A stretch of 55,804 nt of DNA from Candidatus Moraniibacteriota bacterium (lineage in GTDB: Bacteria; Patescibacteriota; Minisyncoccia; Moranbacterales; UBA1568): assembly GCA_023261695.1 (NCBI GenBank), contig JAHFON010000004.1, positions 1-55,804 on the forward strand. The letters run 5' to 3'. How positions within the stretch are numbered: the first letter of the stretch is position 1; every line of letters starts with the position of its first letter. The translations under genes were made by a program, and so were the position numbers. The notes under the pieces are model-generated. The model saw only the letters and a program-made list of their open reading frames with translations, did no database searches and was not told where the DNA came from. Shown piece after piece: positions 8,802 to 33,085 of this stretch.

Positions 8802-9204
8802 GGGGTTGTTTAGTTTCGACAGGATGTACTTTCAAAATACGCAAGCCGACCTCGGTGGTATGGTCGCTAATCTCGCCATCACGATGATAAATGCAAATTT
8901 CATCACCAAAGCAAAGAACGCATTCGCGCAAGCGTTTGCCCCGTCTTTCGCTCCTGCTCTCGCCTAATTTACTTTAGCGAGTAGCCATCAGACTTCTGAT
9001 TCCCGGTAAGAAATCTCTGGTGCCATAATATCGGGACGACCGAAGAATTTATTTTTCTTTCTTCTTCCCAGTCGTATGCGAAAGGAAAAATTGCCAGAGC
9101 ATTTTGTTTGCTTTTTACCTCAGGCATTTACATAAAGCGGACTAGGCTTGTAGAATATTTTGAAAAAACATTTTTGGACATGGGTGCGATTCCCATCAAC
9201 TCCA
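8802..9204 (+). ncRNA. ssrA: tmRNA (SsrA)
   Basis: The 5' end is GGGGUUGUUUAGUUUCGACAGGAU. The 3' end is GGACAUGGGUGCGAUUCCCAUCAACUCCA, a T-arm plus acceptor strand. The acceptor stem GGGGUUG/CAACUCC includes the G3-U alanine identity pair. The tag ORF GCA...TAA (8893-8967) encodes ANFITKAKNAFAQAFAPSFAPALA. The 3' CCA is not encoded; the genome reads A-CAA after the stem. Confidence 0.92.
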
Positions 9205-9236
9205 CAAATTTTTTAGTTCGCAATCACAATTAAAAA

Positions 9237-26321: not shown

Positions 26322-27593
26322 TTACTTTACTAAGTCTTCAAGCAACCATTTCCATAGTGGCTTGAACTGTATGGTTTTTCCATCCTTCTTGACTTCGCGC
26401 TCTTCGTCCCATGTCAGCACGGTAAGTTTATTAACTTTCAATTCCTCGCTTGCTTCAAATAATGCTTTTGTCTCACGTTGTTCCACGTCGGAATTTCTCA
26501 AATCGTAGCAAACTTGAATAAGTTCAGATGTCTGGTAACCATTACGGATTGCAAAGTCAACCTCTCGACCGTTGCGAGTCTTGTAATAAAACAATTCCCG
26601 GTTCGGCTCAAAACATTTTTTCACCAGTTCGGTAAAAACCAGATTCTCCATGAGTTTGCCATTGTCGGGAGAATGTTGAACAGCCTTAGATGTGACGAAG
26701 CCGTTATCAACCGTGTAAATCTTTTTTGGCGAGCGGAGACGTTCACCGGCTTTTGCGGAAAAACCGGAGAGAGAAAATACAACGTACGCTTCTTCAAGAT
26801 ATTTAAGATACCGCTCAAGGGTCACGCCGCTTTTAAATTTCAAAATATTCGCGAGCTTCCGGAAACTGTATTGATTAGAAACATTATTTATCAAGTATGA
26901 GCCGAGCTGGTCTATTTGCTCGGAAAAACGAACCTTGTGGCGCTTTACAACGTCCTTAAATAACAATGCGTCAAAGAGTACATCCAAATAACCCCGCGGA
27001 TGTTGATTTTTTATCACCACTTCCGGAAAGCCGCCGAACGCCATGTATTGTTCGAGCAACTTCAACAGTTCTGATTTTTGATCAAGCTGGGAAAAGTTTT
27101 TAGCTTTGAGAAATTCGTGAAAATCGAATGGCAATATTTCTATCGGCAGATGTCTTCCGGTCAAATGGGTCGCAAGTTCCATCGACAAAAGATTGGCGTT
27201 TGATCCGGTTAGCACGAGATTATACCCTCCTCGATGCAGACGGTTGGCAAACAACTCCCAGCCCTTTAGGTTTTGTATTTCATCAAACAAAACAAACTTA
27301 GTATCTCCGTAGAACCGATGCAATTCGTCCGTTAGTGCATATAAGTCTAATTTCTCTCCCACCAAACCCGGGTCATCAAAATTGAAGTAGGCAAATTTTT
27401 GGTCTTTGAGCATCATGAGAGAAAAAACCGATTTGCCGGCGCGACGTGGACCGAGAATGACTTTTATCAAATCTGAAGACATCCACTTGGGCGCATCTTT
27501 CAGCTTCGTCCTCTCCACATAATCCAAACCAGCTAGGGCTTCTTTCTCCCCGTTTTGCTTGGATATTAGCTCTTGTAACTTGCTTTTTTGCAT
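26322..27593 (-). CDS. AAA-family ATPase with DUF4143-type C-terminal domain
   Basis: Walker A is ILGPRRAGKSVF and Walker B is FVLFDEIQN. The C-terminal portion (EVDFAI...) is typical of the archaeal/CPR ATPase-DUF4143 family. It is the first gene of the co-directional block. Confidence 0.75.
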   Translation of the reverse strand: MQKSKLQELISKQNGEKEALAGLDYVERTKLKDAPKWMSSDLIKVILGPRRAGKSVFSLMMLKDQKFAYFNFDDPGLVGEKLDLYALTDELHRFYGDTKFVLFDEIQNLKGWELFANRLHRGGYNLVLTGSNANLLSMELATHLTGRHLPIEILPFDFHEFLKAKNFSQLDQKSELLKLLEQYMAFGGFPEVVIKNQHPRGYLDVLFDALLFKDVVKRHKVRFSEQIDQLGSYLINNVSNQYSFRKLANILKFKSGVTLERYLKYLEEAYVVFSLSGFSAKAGERLRSPKKIYTVDNGFVTSKAVQHSPDNGKLMENLVFTELVKKCFEPNRELFYYKTRNGREVDFAIRNGYQTSELIQVCYDLRNSDVEQRETKALFEASEELKVNKLTVLTWDEEREVKKDGKTIQFKPLWKWLLEDLVK

Positions 27594-27644: not shown

Positions 27645-28655
27645 TTATAGTATGCATAAAAGGGAAATACAAGAGGTGTCCTGATGCTTCATAAGAAATT
27701 CCTCTATGCTTTTTTCTACCGCTTCAACATTATGGCATTGCATCAATTGCGCGCGCAATTCTTTAGCTTGTGGAAAATGATTCGCATACGCCTGATAATG
27801 TTTTTTCATCAATTCAAAACCTTTCATATTTCCCCAGACTTCTTCAAATAACTTCGTGTGTTCAACGGCAACACGTAATTTTTCTTCTACTGTTACGTTC
27901 TGCTTTTCCTTGTCAAACAGCCACGGATTGCCGAATATCGCGCGGCCGAGCATCACCCCGTCACAACCAGTTTCACGTACTTTGCTTTCCGCGTCGGCAA
28001 GATCTGTCACATCGCCATTGCCGATGATAAGAGTGCCGCTCCCCCGCGCAATCTCCACGGCTCTCCTTAATCTCTCCCAGCGCGCCGGCACTTGGGACAT
28101 TTCTTTTTTGGTGCGCGCATGCACCGTAATCGCCGCGGGTTTTGCTTCCATTAGATTTGGAAGCCAGGTTTCTAAATTATCTTCGTTGAATCCGAGACGC
28201 GTCTTTACAGAAATAGGCAATTCCTTACCGGCCGCCTTTGATCCTTCACGCGTGGCAATTATCAATTGTTTCGCCAGTTCCGGGTTTCGCATACACATCG
28301 CTCCCGCGCCCTGTTTCATCACGTTTTTATCCGGGCATCCCATATTGATATCAATACCATCAAAACCCAGTTCAGTCACAAGTTTCGCCGCTAAAAACAT
28401 TTTCTCGGGATGCGCCGTAAAAAGTTGTGTGACTATAGGCCGCTCACTTTCGGTAAACCACAAGTCACGAAGCAATGCCCATCGCCCCTGCGGATGGCAA
28501 AGTCCTTCCGCCGAAACGAATTCCGTCCAAACCACATCCGGCTTTCCATACATGGCAATCACGCGGCGAAAAACCGCGTCCGTGACATTAGCCATCGGCG
28601 CCGATACAAAAAACGGCTTCTTCAGCGTTTCCCAAAATCCGAGATGTGGCTTCAT
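27645..28655 (-). CDS. tRNA-dihydrouridine synthase (Dus family)
   Basis: FVSAPMANVTDAVFRRV, GIDINMGCP, VKTRLG and AITVHARTK are Dus/FMN TIM-barrel motifs. Confidence 0.9.
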   Translation of the reverse strand: MKPHLGFWETLKKPFFVSAPMANVTDAVFRRVIAMYGKPDVVWTEFVSAEGLCHPQGRWALLRDLWFTESERPIVTQLFTAHPEKMFLAAKLVTELGFDGIDINMGCPDKNVMKQGAGAMCMRNPELAKQLIIATREGSKAAGKELPISVKTRLGFNEDNLETWLPNLMEAKPAAITVHARTKKEMSQVPARWERLRRAVEIARGSGTLIIGNGDVTDLADAESKVRETGCDGVMLGRAIFGNPWLFDKEKQNVTVEEKLRVAVEHTKLFEEVWGNMKGFELMKKHYQAYANHFPQAKELRAQLMQCHNVEAVEKSIEEFLMKHQDTSCISLLCIL

Positions 28656-28667
28656 ATCACAAATAAC

Positions 28668-29405
28668 TCAACTAATCCGCGCCAATTCATCACGCAAAAG
28701 CATCAGCATTTCCCGCTTCAGCGTTTTCCGTACGCGAGAAAACGTATCATAGGGAAGAAGCACGTTCAGGTCTTGATTTATCACCTTGTCCGTCACATGG
28801 GTCTCAATAAATTTAATCAGGTCAGCAAAAAATATGTCTGTATCTTTGCCTGTGCGCTCTCTGATTACCTCTTCGTTATACCTAAGTCCATTCAGAAAGA
28901 AATGACGAATGTCATATACATCACGTCCGGCAATTGACTCGTGCTTATCATAGCGATCCATAAGCGCAACAAGTTTATTAGCTAGCATAGTGTCTGGTGT
29001 TTGACAAAAAATGATGCGGTCAATTTCAGAAAATCTCCGCGCTTCATAACGATTTGATTTCGGAGGCGGAAATGTAGCGTCCACTTTAAGCGTATTTCGT
29101 TCGCCCTCTTTCGCTTCATACTTCAAAAAGTATTGAAGCGCAACTTTACTCTGGTCTCGCACTATAAGCGAAAGATTCCGAAAAATTATCTCCATCCGGC
29201 GGCGCGTCTCTGGAATATCTTTTTTTTCCCCCGTAAAATCAAAGTCAAGATCTACAGAAAAGCGGTCAAGAAGTCCAAGCATCGCAGCGCATGTTCCTCC
29301 TTTGAACGCAATTCTACTCGCAATAAAAGCGTCATCGCTTATCCCTGTAAGCGTTCGGAATAGCCATGCTTTATGAATTGCGTCTTTTGGGTTTGGAAGA
29401 ATCAT
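28668..29405 (-). CDS. AbiEii/AbiGii-family nucleotidyltransferase toxin (type IV TA / abortive infection)
   Basis: FKGGTCAAMLGLLDRFSVDLDFDF is the hallmark NTase motif of the AbiEii (DUF1814) family. It sits directly downstream of an AbiEi-like gene. Confidence 0.8.
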   Translation of the reverse strand: MILPNPKDAIHKAWLFRTLTGISDDAFIASRIAFKGGTCAAMLGLLDRFSVDLDFDFTGEKKDIPETRRRMEIIFRNLSLIVRDQSKVALQYFLKYEAKEGERNTLKVDATFPPPKSNRYEARRFSEIDRIIFCQTPDTMLANKLVALMDRYDKHESIAGRDVYDIRHFFLNGLRYNEEVIRERTGKDTDIFFADLIKFIETHVTDKVINQDLNVLLPYDTFSRVRKTLKREMLMLLRDELARIS

Positions 29406-29416
29406 GGCAGTTGTTT

Positions 29417-30067
29417 CTATATTCGCTGGGTATATCGTTCTGGGGTAAGCGGATACCCGACGTGCTCTTGCAAGGATTTTACTTTTTCCCAGTCAACAAG
29501 AGCGGCGCCATCAAGATAAATATGGCGGTGAAAATACAGGATGTCGGCAACGGCGCGCTCGACAGATGCTTTGCGAACACCGTTAACCTCCGTCACAATC
29601 CCGTCAGATTGATATAAAAACTTATCAGCAAGTTTGCGCGAAAGGTAGCGGCTATCCCCGACAGAAAAATGTTTAGTCGCCATCCCCACCAAAGTCACGG
29701 CGGAAAGCGTTTGCTGGATGATTCCATTCTCAATAAGGATTGTCTCCGTGCTCACATACGCATACCCGTGAAGCGCCTTGATACCAAGAAGAAGCCGATC
29801 AACTTCTCCAATCGGTTTGATAGCATAAAATCCTTTATAGATACGGAACAAAAGCCCCTGCCGTACATATCGCTTGAGCGTGGTATAAAGCGTGTTGCTG
29901 TTTTGGATTCCCCACAAGTTCGCCAGGTCTTTCGTATGAAAAATCATCTCTCCAATTTTTGCTAAATCAGAAAACCGCTTCAAATATTGGCTTTTTGACC
30001 CAACCTTTACGCCTATGCTTCTATTTGTGATTGTTTTATCTGTACTCATAAGTACAGGATAAATCAT
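29417..30067 (-). CDS. AbiEi-family antitoxin/transcriptional regulator
   Basis: The N-terminal wHTH-like block FHTKDLANLWGIQNSNTLYTTLKRYVRQGLLFRIYKGFYAI is typical of AbiEi. It is paired with AbiEii with an 11-nt gap. Confidence 0.75.
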   Translation of the reverse strand: MIYPVLMSTDKTITNRSIGVKVGSKSQYLKRFSDLAKIGEMIFHTKDLANLWGIQNSNTLYTTLKRYVRQGLLFRIYKGFYAIKPIGEVDRLLLGIKALHGYAYVSTETILIENGIIQQTLSAVTLVGMATKHFSVGDSRYLSRKLADKFLYQSDGIVTEVNGVRKASVERAVADILYFHRHIYLDGAALVDWEKVKSLQEHVGYPLTPERYTQRI

Positions 30068-30131
30068 TTAAGCTGCAAAGTCAAGTTTGCTTTTTATATT
30101 TTATACGCCAACGAGTGGATAAGATAAAAGC

Positions 30132-30165
30132 TTGACAAGAGAGAGAGAGAGAGAGAGAGTAAAAT
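30132..30165 (+). promoter_or_regulatory. Sigma-70-like promoter with a dinucleotide-repeat spacer
   Basis: TTGACA (30132-30137) is followed by a 22-nt spacer made entirely of (AG)11, then TAAAAT (30160-30165). It lies 70 nt upstream of the 593-aa ORF. The spacer is 4-5 nt longer than the 17-18 nt optimum. Confidence 0.6.
30138..30159. repeat. (AG)11 microsatellite (polypurine/polypyrimidine mirror repeat)
   Basis: Counted directly: 11 perfect AG units between the -35 and -10 hexamers. Confidence 0.98.
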
Positions 30166-30234
30166 GCGGTTAAAGTTGGAGAGGATTTTTTGTTGTTTCA
30201 TTGTTTCAATATTAATCAGTAATCTAAAAAAATT

Positions 30235-32016
30235 ATGTTAAAGTCTCCGGAACAATTTGATTTTTCTAAAAAACAAGATCAACAAAAGTTTGATAGATTA
30301 CCAGTAGAAGAGAAAGGGTCTGTTGCGGAGGAAGCATTTGATGAAGCGGCTTTAATAAACAACATGGTTGCTAACGATTTGTGCGGTAGTTATACGGTAG
30401 CTGATAGAATTGTAGAGAAACTAAAATCAAATAAGGGTTTTTCTGCAGAAGTCGCTAATAAGGCTGTAGAAACAGCACAAAAGATTGACGATGAATTAAT
30501 GGAAGTTAAGTTTAACAAATCCGAAATAGAGACGTCATTGAAACGCATTTCTAAAAAAAAGAAAGAATTGTTGGATGCATCTAAATTTTTTGTTTCCGAT
30601 TGTCACGAGGCTAGCAGGGCTGTTTTTTTAGAACATCTTTCGCAAATATATCCGGAATTAGTAACTATAGCCAGCCAAATAGAAGAAGACAAACTTATTC
30701 CTTTCTCTTCAGAAGATTGGAAACAAAACAAACAACGATCTGATGAAAACTATACGCTATTGCGAGAAAAAATAATCTCGTTGGCTTCAAACATTGAAGA
30801 ACGTTTATCTTTGACATTGGCATTAAATGCTCTTGATAATTTAGATAGGCGTGCCTGGAATCCTATGATGGCAAGCTCTCCGGCAGAATTTGTTAAAGCA
30901 GTAAGTAATATGGGGCTAAAAAAATATTTCAAAAAAGAGATAAACTATAAGACCTATAATGAGTATGATCTTGATACCACACAATATCATTTTGATTGGT
31001 GGGATAGTGAGATAATGCACAAACTGATTAAAAAAGTAGGGTTATTGAATAAAGAAGATGCAGGAAAATATATAGGTTACTTTGAACAACTGGTATCATT
31101 AAAAGACGAAGAGGAAAAATTAAACAAAAGAAAAGAAAATTTACAAAAAAAAAGAGATGTCCAGCGTTCTTTGTGCACTCTTGGTTTTAACTTAGGAATA
31201 TTAAATGAAAAATCATGGGCGGCGGGATTTATTGATAACGATGAATCGCGACGCATAAAAGACTTGGTATTTGATGAAAAAGAACAACTAGTAGCATACA
31301 TTAAAAGTGTTTCTAATCATAGCGCGGCGTTTAGCGGATCTGGCGGGTCGGAATATGGCACCAAAATTGTGGTTTTTAGAGATAATCCAAGCAACCAAGT
31401 TTCTGAATATGTGAAATGGCGAGACGCCTACAGCGCGAGCAGGGATAATCCCGCATTAGATTTTGATAAAATTGAAATTGCCGGAATTACAGCTGATACT
31501 GTAAGCGTTCATTTATTTACTCAAGGATCGCATATTCACACAATTGAGTTTCCATTAAAGAAATCAGCAAAAAAGGAGAGGGTTGTTTTTAGTGAAGAAG
31601 AATCTGAAAAATGGCTGGGTGATTACAAAAAAATTGAAGAAGAAACGAGGAAATCAAGTGGCATAAAAGGTTTTATGCCAGTATATGTAGATCTTAAATA
31701 TTACGAAGGCCCCTCCCTTGCTGTCGGGGAGGATACGTCCAGGATGATTCCTTACCGCGAACCAATGGTTCTTAATCGCAAAGTGAATGAAAAGTTGGGA
31801 ATAGGCACGTTTGTTGTTATGTCCCAGATTGATCATGATATGTGGAAAGGAAAAGAATTCAGATATGAGGGCTGGGGCATTGATCGATCTGGCAAGAAAA
31901 CAAGATTATTCCTGCAAAACGCCTATGAGGATCAATTGCGTGGCAGCAGCAGAGTTGCTATTGATGTTACTGCCGAAGAGCTCTTTGAGCGTATGCAAAA
32001 AGAATTAGAGAAATAA
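30235..32016 (+). CDS. Hypothetical protein (593 aa), no recognised domain
   Basis: A long clean ORF in an AT-rich segment; the line at 30241 has 16/60 G+C. The N-terminal half looks helical or coiled-coil (charged heptad-like runs) and the C-terminal half looks beta-rich. There is no signal peptide, no transmembrane helix and no catalytic motif that I recognise. Confidence 0.7.
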   Translation: MLKSPEQFDFSKKQDQQKFDRLPVEEKGSVAEEAFDEAALINNMVANDLCGSYTVADRIVEKLKSNKGFSAEVANKAVETAQKIDDELMEVKFNKSEIETSLKRISKKKKELLDASKFFVSDCHEASRAVFLEHLSQIYPELVTIASQIEEDKLIPFSSEDWKQNKQRSDENYTLLREKIISLASNIEERLSLTLALNALDNLDRRAWNPMMASSPAEFVKAVSNMGLKKYFKKEINYKTYNEYDLDTTQYHFDWWDSEIMHKLIKKVGLLNKEDAGKYIGYFEQLVSLKDEEEKLNKRKENLQKKRDVQRSLCTLGFNLGILNEKSWAAGFIDNDESRRIKDLVFDEKEQLVAYIKSVSNHSAAFSGSGGSEYGTKIVVFRDNPSNQVSEYVKWRDAYSASRDNPALDFDKIEIAGITADTVSVHLFTQGSHIHTIEFPLKKSAKKERVVFSEEESEKWLGDYKKIEEETRKSSGIKGFMPVYVDLKYYEGPSLAVGEDTSRMIPYREPMVLNRKVNEKLGIGTFVVMSQIDHDMWKGKEFRYEGWGIDRSGKKTRLFLQNAYEDQLRGSSRVAIDVTAEELFERMQKELEK

Positions 32017-32546: not shown

Positions 32547-32918
32547 ATGCCAGTTCTTACTGAATCGGAAGTGAGAAAACTTATTGACCAAATTGGCCCG
32601 CACATTGACAGTTGTTACGATCACACCTATCCTCCGCAATTTCCGGAAGGCAGGCAAAATGTTTGTGCCGTAAAACGATTGGCGGAGGACGGCGACAATT
32701 ATGGATATGACACTATTTATGTGGTGTGGAGAACTTCAGATGATCAAGTCAAATATCGCGAGATTTTAAATTCCAAAAGCGATAAAGACTATCTTCACAT
32801 TGAAGCGATCCGTGTAGACAATGGTTCTTTAGTGGTAGAAGTTGGGAGTGGCGGATCGTTCAGTGGGCATCCGTGGAAACTGACGTACCAAATTCCGTTG
32901 CAAAGTCTCTACTTATAA
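32547..32918 (+). CDS. Hypothetical protein (about 123 aa)
   Basis: A strong Shine-Dalgarno sequence AAGGAGG (32532-32538) lies 8 nt before ATG 32547 (MPVLTESEV). The ORF track starts at 32523. By eye there is weak resemblance to the C-terminal part of the 593-aa protein. Confidence 0.65.
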   Translation: MPVLTESEVRKLIDQIGPHIDSCYDHTYPPQFPEGRQNVCAVKRLAEDGDNYGYDTIYVVWRTSDDQVKYREILNSKSDKDYLHIEAIRVDNGSLVVEVGSGGSFSGHPWKLTYQIPLQSLYL

Positions 32919-32960
32919 TCTTTTCCAATGCGTATTTCTTGTCAGAAATAAAAGCCATCA

Positions 32961-32998
32961 GCGCCGACGAAGGATAATGCCATCGTCGGCGCTTTTAA
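32961..32998 (+). terminator. Intrinsic terminator of the orphan three-gene unit
   Basis: GCGCCGACGA, a 12-nt loop, then TCGTCGGCGC (10 bp, perfect), followed by TTTTAATT. Confidence 0.85.
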
Positions 32999-33085
32999 TT
33001 ATTTATTTTGGAAGCTCGGATTCCCGCTTTCGCGGGAATGATAGAGAGCTTGTTAGAAGTGGCTTCATTGTAAAAAAATTTCAAT

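Follow-up and report, generated by a model that had tools for sequence, protein, structure and literature searches.

A dinucleotide repeat forming the entire spacer of a candidate contingency-type promoter in Candidatus Moranbacteria

Phase variation by means of repeats located in the spacer between the −35 and −10 promoter elements is an established mechanism. In the hifA/hifB region of Haemophilus influenzae, (TA)9–11 forms the −35/−10 spacer (van Ham et al. 1993; PMC3899988). In Neisseria meningitidis, the spacers of porA and opc contain poly-G and poly-C tracts, respectively, while the same review includes a poly-A tract in the spacer of vlp in Mycoplasma hyorhinis, as well as fim of Bordetella pertussis (PMC3899988). 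The original prediction on the locus described below had invoked hif, porA and opc as precedents for spacer-repeat switching, in agreement with that review.

The DNA analysed here, hereafter the window, is a stretch of 55,804 nucleotides (contig JAHFON010000004.1 of assembly GCA_023261695.1) from an uncultured, groundwater-type host belonging to Candidatus Moranbacteria/Moraniibacteriota (CPR, Patescibacteria). Members of the CPR are ultrasmall, mostly episymbiotic and hard to culture, and stochastic switching by promoter microsatellites is known mostly from host-adapted pathogens and mycoplasmas. Our searches of the accessible full-text literature yielded no description of phase variation through promoter repeats in CPR/Patescibacteria; what comes closest is a Gracilibacterium repeat that is hypervariable but coding (PMC6851277).

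The locus of interest reads gcTTGACA-(AG)11-TAAAATgcgg, preceded in the window by aaaagcTTGACA, so that a −35-like and a −10-like hexamer directly abut a dinucleotide tract which constitutes the whole of the interval between them (Table 1). TRF described the tract as a repeat of period 2 with 11.0 copies and 100% matches. Every coordinate that had been assigned to this layout proved correct on direct reading and by TRF, as did those of two tandem TTGTTTCA octamers in the predicted leader (30193–30208, TRF). Likewise, the polypurine mirror-repeat nature attributed to the tract was borne out, since direct reading shows a perfect homopurine mirror repeat. The promoter hexamers and the tract lie 70 nt upstream of a gene encoding a 593-aa protein. 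No ORF of at least 40 aa crosses (AG)11, and the tract is therefore non-coding; an Rfam search of the tract matched no family. Within the predicted leader, an SD-like GGAGAGGA at 30178–30185 is followed by a TTG-initiated mini-ORF of 10 codons (MLFHCFNINQ and stop, 30190–30222) that overlaps both octamers. Ahead of the ATG at 30235 there is an A-rich stretch and no SD; the assignment of this ATG as the start was confirmed by the conservation of the N-terminus MxKSPEQFDFSK in homologues.

Table 1. Predicted features of the repeat promoter, the downstream cassette and the adjacent AbiE region (positions in the window)
Feature	Position	Strand	Basis and remarks
AAA_14/DUF4143 ATPase, PADLOC candidate defence PDC-S01	26322-27593	-	4e-103
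Dus (dihydrouridine synthase)	27645-28655	-	gene order
AbiEii toxin	28668-29405	-	PF08843 1.1e-18; PADLOC 4.7e-22
AbiEi antitoxin	29417-29947 or up to 30067	-	PADLOC 4.6e-23; 176-aa start called in L001
Divergent abiE promoter, TTGACT-17-TATCCT	30084 to 30056	-	promoter scan
-35 hexamer TTGACA	30132-30137	+	direct reading; exact lineage consensus
Perfect (AG)11 microsatellite, entire 22-nt spacer	30138-30159		TRF
GAGAGT, weak -10-like hexamer (A2, A4, T6)	30155-30160	+	in-silico unit series
-10 hexamer TAAAAT, 5/6 vs TATAAT, without TG extension	30160-30165	+	direct reading
Predicted leader	30166-30234	+	direct reading, TRF
593-aa protein gene	30235-32016	+	ORF; function not assigned by any search
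Stand-alone receiver (REC) protein, 145 aa	32034-32471	+	PF00072
122/123-aa protein	32550-32918	+	own SD AAGGAGG; within 131-aa ORF
Intrinsic terminator, 11-bp GC-rich stem and T-rich tail	32960-33003	+	fold -27 kcal/mol, z-score -6.2

Such an arrangement is far beyond what chance would produce. Under an iid model, the expectation for a tract of this kind in the window is 1.5e-8, and (AG)11 is the only dinucleotide repeat of at least five units that the window contains; the 80 related genomes examined for comparison (1.275 Mb) contain ten dinucleotide repeats of five units and none longer. Moreover, the hexamer frequencies of the window itself give a probability of about 1.6e-6 for a single tract being directly flanked by TTGACA and by a TATAAT-like hexamer (5/6 matches or better).

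To our knowledge, CPR promoters have not been well described, and the meaning of the two hexamers was approached through a census of 80 related loci (L003–L082, 1.275 Mb), which contain 501 TTGACA sites. TAnnnT occurred at exactly 17 nt after TTGACA in 104 of these sites, as compared with 16 sites at 16 nt and 11 sites at 18 nt, over a background of about 5–7. Among the 104 sites spaced by 17 nt, T was present at −15 in 70 and G at −14 in 64, giving a TG extension in about 65%, and TAAAAT occurs among their −10 hexamers. Moranbacteria promoters are thus E. coli-like, of the form TTGACA-N14-TGn-TAnnnT, with a very rigid spacing of 17 nt, a description that is useful for annotating Moranbacteria genomes. 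A small bump at 22 nt was considered as a possible promoter class in the relatives and discarded, as it is an echo of the 17-spaced promoters (TATAATAnnnT); a small bump at 12 nt is likewise an echo of them (TAnnnTATAAT). Since 104 of 501 TTGACA sites have TAnnnT at 17 nt, the hexamers flanking the repeat fit the lineage and appear to be bona fide lineage promoter elements, separated by 22 nt, a spacing predicted to be non-functional and not used in these bacteria. The repeat promoter is devoid of the TG extended −10 common in the lineage.

No other promoter scoring at least 9/12 with a TAnnnT −10 was detected by a promoter scan of the plus strand between abiEi and the ATG of the 593-aa gene. 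The sole 9/12 scorer in that interval is a weak combination derived from the tract itself, TTGACA-17-GAGAGT. Furthermore, read-through from upstream is excluded, because the upstream gene is divergent.

The consequences of changes in the number of AG units were followed in an in-silico series. Only n=8 and n=9, which place the hexamers 16 and 18 nt apart, respectively, give a TTGACA/TAAAAT promoter of 11/12, whereas the 11 units actually present separate them by 22 nt, 5 nt beyond the spacing of 17 nt. The latter cannot be reached in steps of 2 nt, and few promoters of the lineage have spacings of 16 or 18 nt, although both occur above background. The weak hexamer GAGAGT, composed of the 3′ end of the tract and the T of TAAAAT, stands exactly 17 nt from TTGACA only at n=11; it matches the consensus at 3/6 positions, including the critical A2 and T6, and has no TG. 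Hexamers with a non-T first base at 17 nt showed just a modest enrichment in the relatives (43 vs a background of about 27), the ones actually used being strong in other respects or TG-extended. Since such hexamers are barely enriched and those used are otherwise strong, the 11-unit allele is most likely OFF or low as judged from these comparisons; its state may be 'low' rather than 'off', because GAGAGT lies at exactly 17 nt with 11 units. It had been proposed that the loss of two or three units would lead to spacings of 18 or 16 nt and to a stronger promoter. That part of the proposal holds in the in-silico series, in which n=9 and n=8 score 11/12, but steps of 2 nt miss the optimum of 17 nt, a point that had been overlooked together with GAGAGT and the absence of TG.

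Taken together, our preferred reading, to which we assign a probability of roughly 55%, is that of a contingency-type promoter in which AG slippage would move the spacing between 22 nt (OFF/low, the majority state as observed) and 18 or 16 nt (ON). According to it, (AG)11 would be a hypermutable microsatellite constituting the whole spacer of the sole recognisable sigma-70-type promoter of the 593-aa/REC cassette, and replication slippage would alter the tract in steps of 2 nt. With n=11 and a spacing of 22 nt, the cassette would be silent or weakly transcribed, perhaps from GAGAGT at 17 nt, while contraction to nine or eight units would bring the hexamers to 18 or 16 nt, with an 11/12 consensus, as the ON state. 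A clonal population would in this way carry a minority of cells expressing a horizontally acquired cassette beside AbiE. In this reading, slippage, the position of the transcription start and the influence of the number of units on expression are inferred. Several features of the class were found at the locus: a slippable perfect repeat (about eight or more dinucleotide units), lineage-valid hexamers around the tract, and attainable spacings of both functional and non-functional type.

The genomic setting of the promoter fits with accessory gene content. The original prediction placed the 593-aa, REC and 123-aa ORFs next to AbiE, and this is how they are found, with AbiEi and AbiEii encoded divergently upstream. 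The AbiE pair displays the predicted features of a type IV toxin-antitoxin and abortive-infection system, namely a nucleotidyltransferase toxin, an adjacent regulator and a palindrome. The latter, CTGTACT-N4-AGTACAG at 30040–30057, overlaps the abiE promoter in its −10/start region and is probably an operator for AbiEi; this promoter itself does not overlap (AG)11. Within positions 30040–30136, an inverted-repeat scan also detected an imperfect dyad formed by GTCAAGTTTGCTTTT and AAAAGCTTGAC in the two divergent −35 regions. A tblastn search of the 80 related loci found neither AbiE nor any of the three genes of the plus strand, and the PDC-S01 gene was also absent from these relatives. Since AbiE and the cassette are absent from the relatives and the region of the 593-aa gene has a GC content of 36% vs about 45% around it, the repeat promoter lies in an insertion of about 4.5 kb that is specific to the strain. 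The presence of an AT-rich cassette that none of the 80 relatives has at the Dus-Rrf2 locus, beside AbiE and PDC-S01, fits accessory genes and is in keeping with the contingency-type reading, and PDC-S01 and AbiE, with Dus between them, point to a small neighbourhood of defence genes.

The best relatives of Dus, with 60–79% identity, belong to Candidatus Moranbacteria MAGs, with no representative genome of the same species, and Rrf2-SufCB lies beyond the terminator of the cassette. Rrf2 lies 0.09–4.8 kb upstream of Dus in 58 of the 80 related loci, and a Peptidase_U32 gene frequently occupies the interval. The Dus-Rrf2 gap was considered as a defence hotspot and rejected, as it ranges from 85 bp to 4.8 kb and mostly holds the Peptidase_U32 gene. 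Elsewhere in the window, a tmRNA gene was identified at 8802–9207 on the plus strand (Rfam, 107 bits), with the predicted tag peptide ANFITKAKNAFAQAFAPSFAPALA.

The 593-aa protein matched no Pfam, NCBIfam or PADLOC model, and a PDB sequence profile search returned nothing or coiled-coil noise. No relatives were detected in IMG/VR, nor any close homologue among 5.8 billion proteins; a word-index search with the protein or with a 28-sequence profile recovered the query alone, probably swamped by K/E-rich words. Exhaustive HMMER searches, by contrast, recovered 76 distant homologues with a conserved C-terminal domain spanning approximately residues 360–590. In the AF2 model (pLDDT 76), the N-terminal half forms a long coiled coil and the C-terminal domain is rich in beta structure; a Foldseek search of the PDB with this model gave no real match (TM about 0.1).

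Homologue P0003, of 626 aa, is identical to the product of the L088 gene and has the N-terminus MPKSPEQFDFSK in common with the 593-aa protein. This N-terminal module of about 40 aa, M-x-K-SPEQFDF[SR]K..DQQKF..LP (window 30235–30360), is common to proteins of 174–626 aa, such as P0003, P0067 (477 aa), P0072 (388 aa) and P0076 (174 aa), encoded in L088, L097, L099 and L100, whose C-terminal parts are unrelated. By analogy only, such a modular architecture is reminiscent of polymorphic effector families. Five independent assemblies (L100–L104, from Hainich groundwater assemblies and MAG GCA_964366135.1) all break off 53–55 nt before the start ATG of the gene encoding P0076. These contig breaks were considered as evidence of a repeat and dismissed, as no repeat is present at the ends and 55 is a common SPAdes k; they reflect a branch of the assembly graph upstream of this gene, perhaps at a variable or invertible region. 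Among these contigs, the last ~90 nt of a gene encoding 77/81 aa are replaced by diverged sequence with a length difference of 12 nt (L100:1730–1815 vs L101/L102:1730–1827), and this gene therefore appears to have a localized variable C-terminus in contigs that are otherwise identical.

The REC gene starts 18 nt after the 593-aa gene. Its assignment relies on a PF00072 score of 32 bits against a cutoff of 30.2, together with the motifs visible in the translation: IVDD (acidic pair), LLD, MMS and IKK. No output domain or histidine kinase was detected in the cassette or its neighbourhood. The link between the 593-aa family and a receiver protein appears to be real, because homologue P0007 carries an N-terminally fused REC and has a second REC gene directly downstream. 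The position of the 123-aa gene is less clear, although it may be co-transcribed. Its product has 20 homologues with 43–71% identity, and in the two contexts examined (L105, L106) these stand alone, beside S15/PNPase and RecA, with no 593-like or REC genes; a weak hhalign match (31% probability) relates it to residues 373–442 of the 593 family, in the core of the C-terminal domain. Since its homologues stand alone elsewhere, the 123-aa gene may not belong to the unit and may be independent, merely sharing the terminator that appears to close the cassette. Hence, of the target originally proposed for the switch, the 593-aa/REC/123-aa unit, the link with REC finds support in P0007, while the inclusion of the 123-aa gene is in doubt. 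In the translations of the cassette, no signal peptide or lipobox is visible, and no DNA-binding protein was recognised with Pfam or NCBIfam.

Among the sequences upstream of homologues, that of L088 (JGI Ga0210057_1065588, a contig of 35% GC) deserves attention. Here TTGCCA (464–469) is followed by aattagtc and G9 (478–486), and then by TAAACT (487–492), with a spacer of 17 nt half of which is the G9 tract; the ATG of the 626-aa gene follows this putative promoter at a distance of about 85 nt. G or C tracts of at least 9 nt occur approximately once per 255 kb in Moranbacteria loci, so that the probability of encountering one within the ~2 kb analysed upstream of homologues is about 0.01, and its location between promoter-like hexamers at 17 nt would be less likely still. 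The G9 of L088 provides independent support for the repeat-controlled reading of the promoter, with the caveat that a second, perfect TATAAT at 510–515 allows another interpretation, in which the tract immediately precedes the −35 position of that hexamer. Four other homologue upstream regions (L089, L091, L097 and L099) showed no repeat, and that of L087 contained only a common T8.

Across the loci of relatives and the window, G tracts of 6, 7, 8, 9 and 11 nt numbered 94, 20, 0, 4 and 1, respectively, a distribution that skips 8. Poly-G tracts of at least 9 nt were considered as a contingency class in the relatives, an idea that was abandoned: two precede reverse-transcriptase genes, while the rest correspond to a terminator stem, an intergenic location and an unplaced tract in L050. 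The former two, L010:3554–3562 (G9) and L020:166–176 (G11), are located about 50 nt upstream of homologous RVT_1 genes.

With regard to the repeat number, three contigs, that of the window among them, are on record as encoding the 593-aa protein. The other two, ENA ERZ27279942 and Logan SRR14366796 (L001 and L002), both have 11 units, as consensus sequences only, and are 100% identical to the window over about 2.5–7.8 kb (7.8 kb for ENA and 2.6 kb for Logan), indicating one clone. A fourth contig, ERZ27279977, shows one mismatch in 3 kb and ends short of the tract. Variants were searched for among contigs encoding the 593-aa, AbiEi and REC proteins, all of which were clonal with 11 units or ended short of the tract, and a pattern scan of JGI metagenomes for the exact flanks separated by a gap of 6–36 nt (3–18 units) returned no matches. 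For the original prediction of a phase-variation switch, the architecture is favourable, with lineage hexamers, a sole TAnnnT promoter, strong versions at n=8 and n=9, and the G9 of L088, while the three clonal assemblies all have 11 units. Against the switch stand this single unit number in a clonal consensus set, the unreachable 17 nt, the absence of TG and the homologues without a repeat.

Alternatively, the promoter may be silenced or decaying, a purine-rich spacer of 16–18 nt having been expanded neutrally by slippage, so that a recently acquired, costly or dispensable cassette became inactivated and the population is now essentially fixed OFF. Eleven units in all assemblies, an optimum of 17 nt out of reach, four homologue upstream regions without a repeat and a fifth with a common T8, and the foreign character of the cassette, of low GC, absent from the 80 relatives and with no close homologue of its 593-aa protein, speak for such a history. 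Decay is harder to reconcile with three intact reading frames and conserved motifs, with a repeat that is still perfect, and with the G9 tract of L088, found in a homologue promoter at the functional spacing of 17 nt. We regard it as unlikely, although it is the main alternative; the physics would in any case be the same, unit number setting promoter strength, and decay differs from a contingency-type promoter only in the selection maintaining the locus.

A different possibility, and in our opinion a less probable one again, is that the length of the repeat is irrelevant. The origin of transcription might be the weak TTGACA-17-GAGAGT, a promoter with only a −10 or dependent on an activator, or an almost leaderless start at TAATCT (30220), and the tract might act as an H-DNA, curvature, insulator or protein-binding element between the divergent promoters. 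The hexamer placed at 17 nt when n=11 does contain the critical A2 and T6, the tract is a perfect homopurine mirror repeat, and the imperfect dyad of the divergent −35 regions could bind a regulator such as AbiEi. Yet GAGAGT, with 3/6 matches and no TG, belongs to a class of non-T-first hexamers barely enriched at 17 nt, the downstream candidates reach no more than 6/12 when read by eye, and the cassette has no recognised DNA-binding protein. Nor would irrelevance of the length explain the abutment of TTGACA and TAAAAT, with its chance probability of about 1.6e-6. Finally, it is very improbable that the tract is an artefact of assembly or sequencing, or low-complexity sequence arisen by chance, an idea for which only the general difficulty of assemblers with repeats can be adduced. 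Three assemblies, produced by two pipelines with different assemblers (MEGAHIT-style k141 and Logan), agree on it exactly, its 22 nt are well below k-mer and read length, and the chance expectation is 1.5e-8.

Beyond the contingency-type promoter of the window, one could speculate that promoter microsatellites are recurrent in a CPR-specific, receiver-linked family with the ~40-aa N-terminal module, in which (AG)11 and the G9 of L088 would be two independent inventions of a stochastic switch. The locus would then be the first contingency locus described in CPR, and a polymorphic system next to AbiE, similar to effectors or defence systems, would be under its control. We put this wider proposal forward as tentative, with the odds clearly against it. 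If the preferred reading of a contingency-type promoter is true, the state of the switch would be readable from metagenomic reads, a seldom available means of studying heterogeneity and bet-hedging within CPR populations, and the 593-aa/REC cassette would be flagged as costly or conditionally useful, for instance in phage defence or host interaction.

Comparison with the known systems places the locus among them while underlining its differences. In Mycoplasma mycoides, TA repeats occupy the promoter spacer of Vmm, and in M. gallisepticum GAA repeats, with a purine-rich unit, are located upstream of the vlhA promoter. Like the Moranbacteria, these are small-genome, host-dependent bacteria, in which promoter microsatellites serve for ON/OFF control. 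Nevertheless, their products are surface lipoproteins and the vlhA repeat is upstream of the promoter, not in the spacer, whereas the translations of the Moranbacteria cassette have neither signal peptide nor lipobox visible and the product appears cytoplasmic-looking rather than a surface antigen. The hif system is similar in having a dinucleotide spacer of about 9–11 units, steps of 2 nt between functional (16/18) and non-functional spacings, and divergent genes. In hif, however, the repeat lies in overlapping promoters and switches both genes, while here the abiE promoter is outside the tract and only the 593 cassette would be affected; the unit is TA in hif and AG here, the product is in our case not a known surface structure, and 11 units were found in all assemblies. 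As for porA, opc and vlp, these have homopolymers, whose steps of 1 nt make every spacing reachable, in contrast to the even spacings to which AG units are restricted. What they have in common with the locus is the principle of a promoter whose strength is determined by how long the simple repeat in its spacer is, as would be the case for (AG)11, and the G9 of L088 resembles porA directly.
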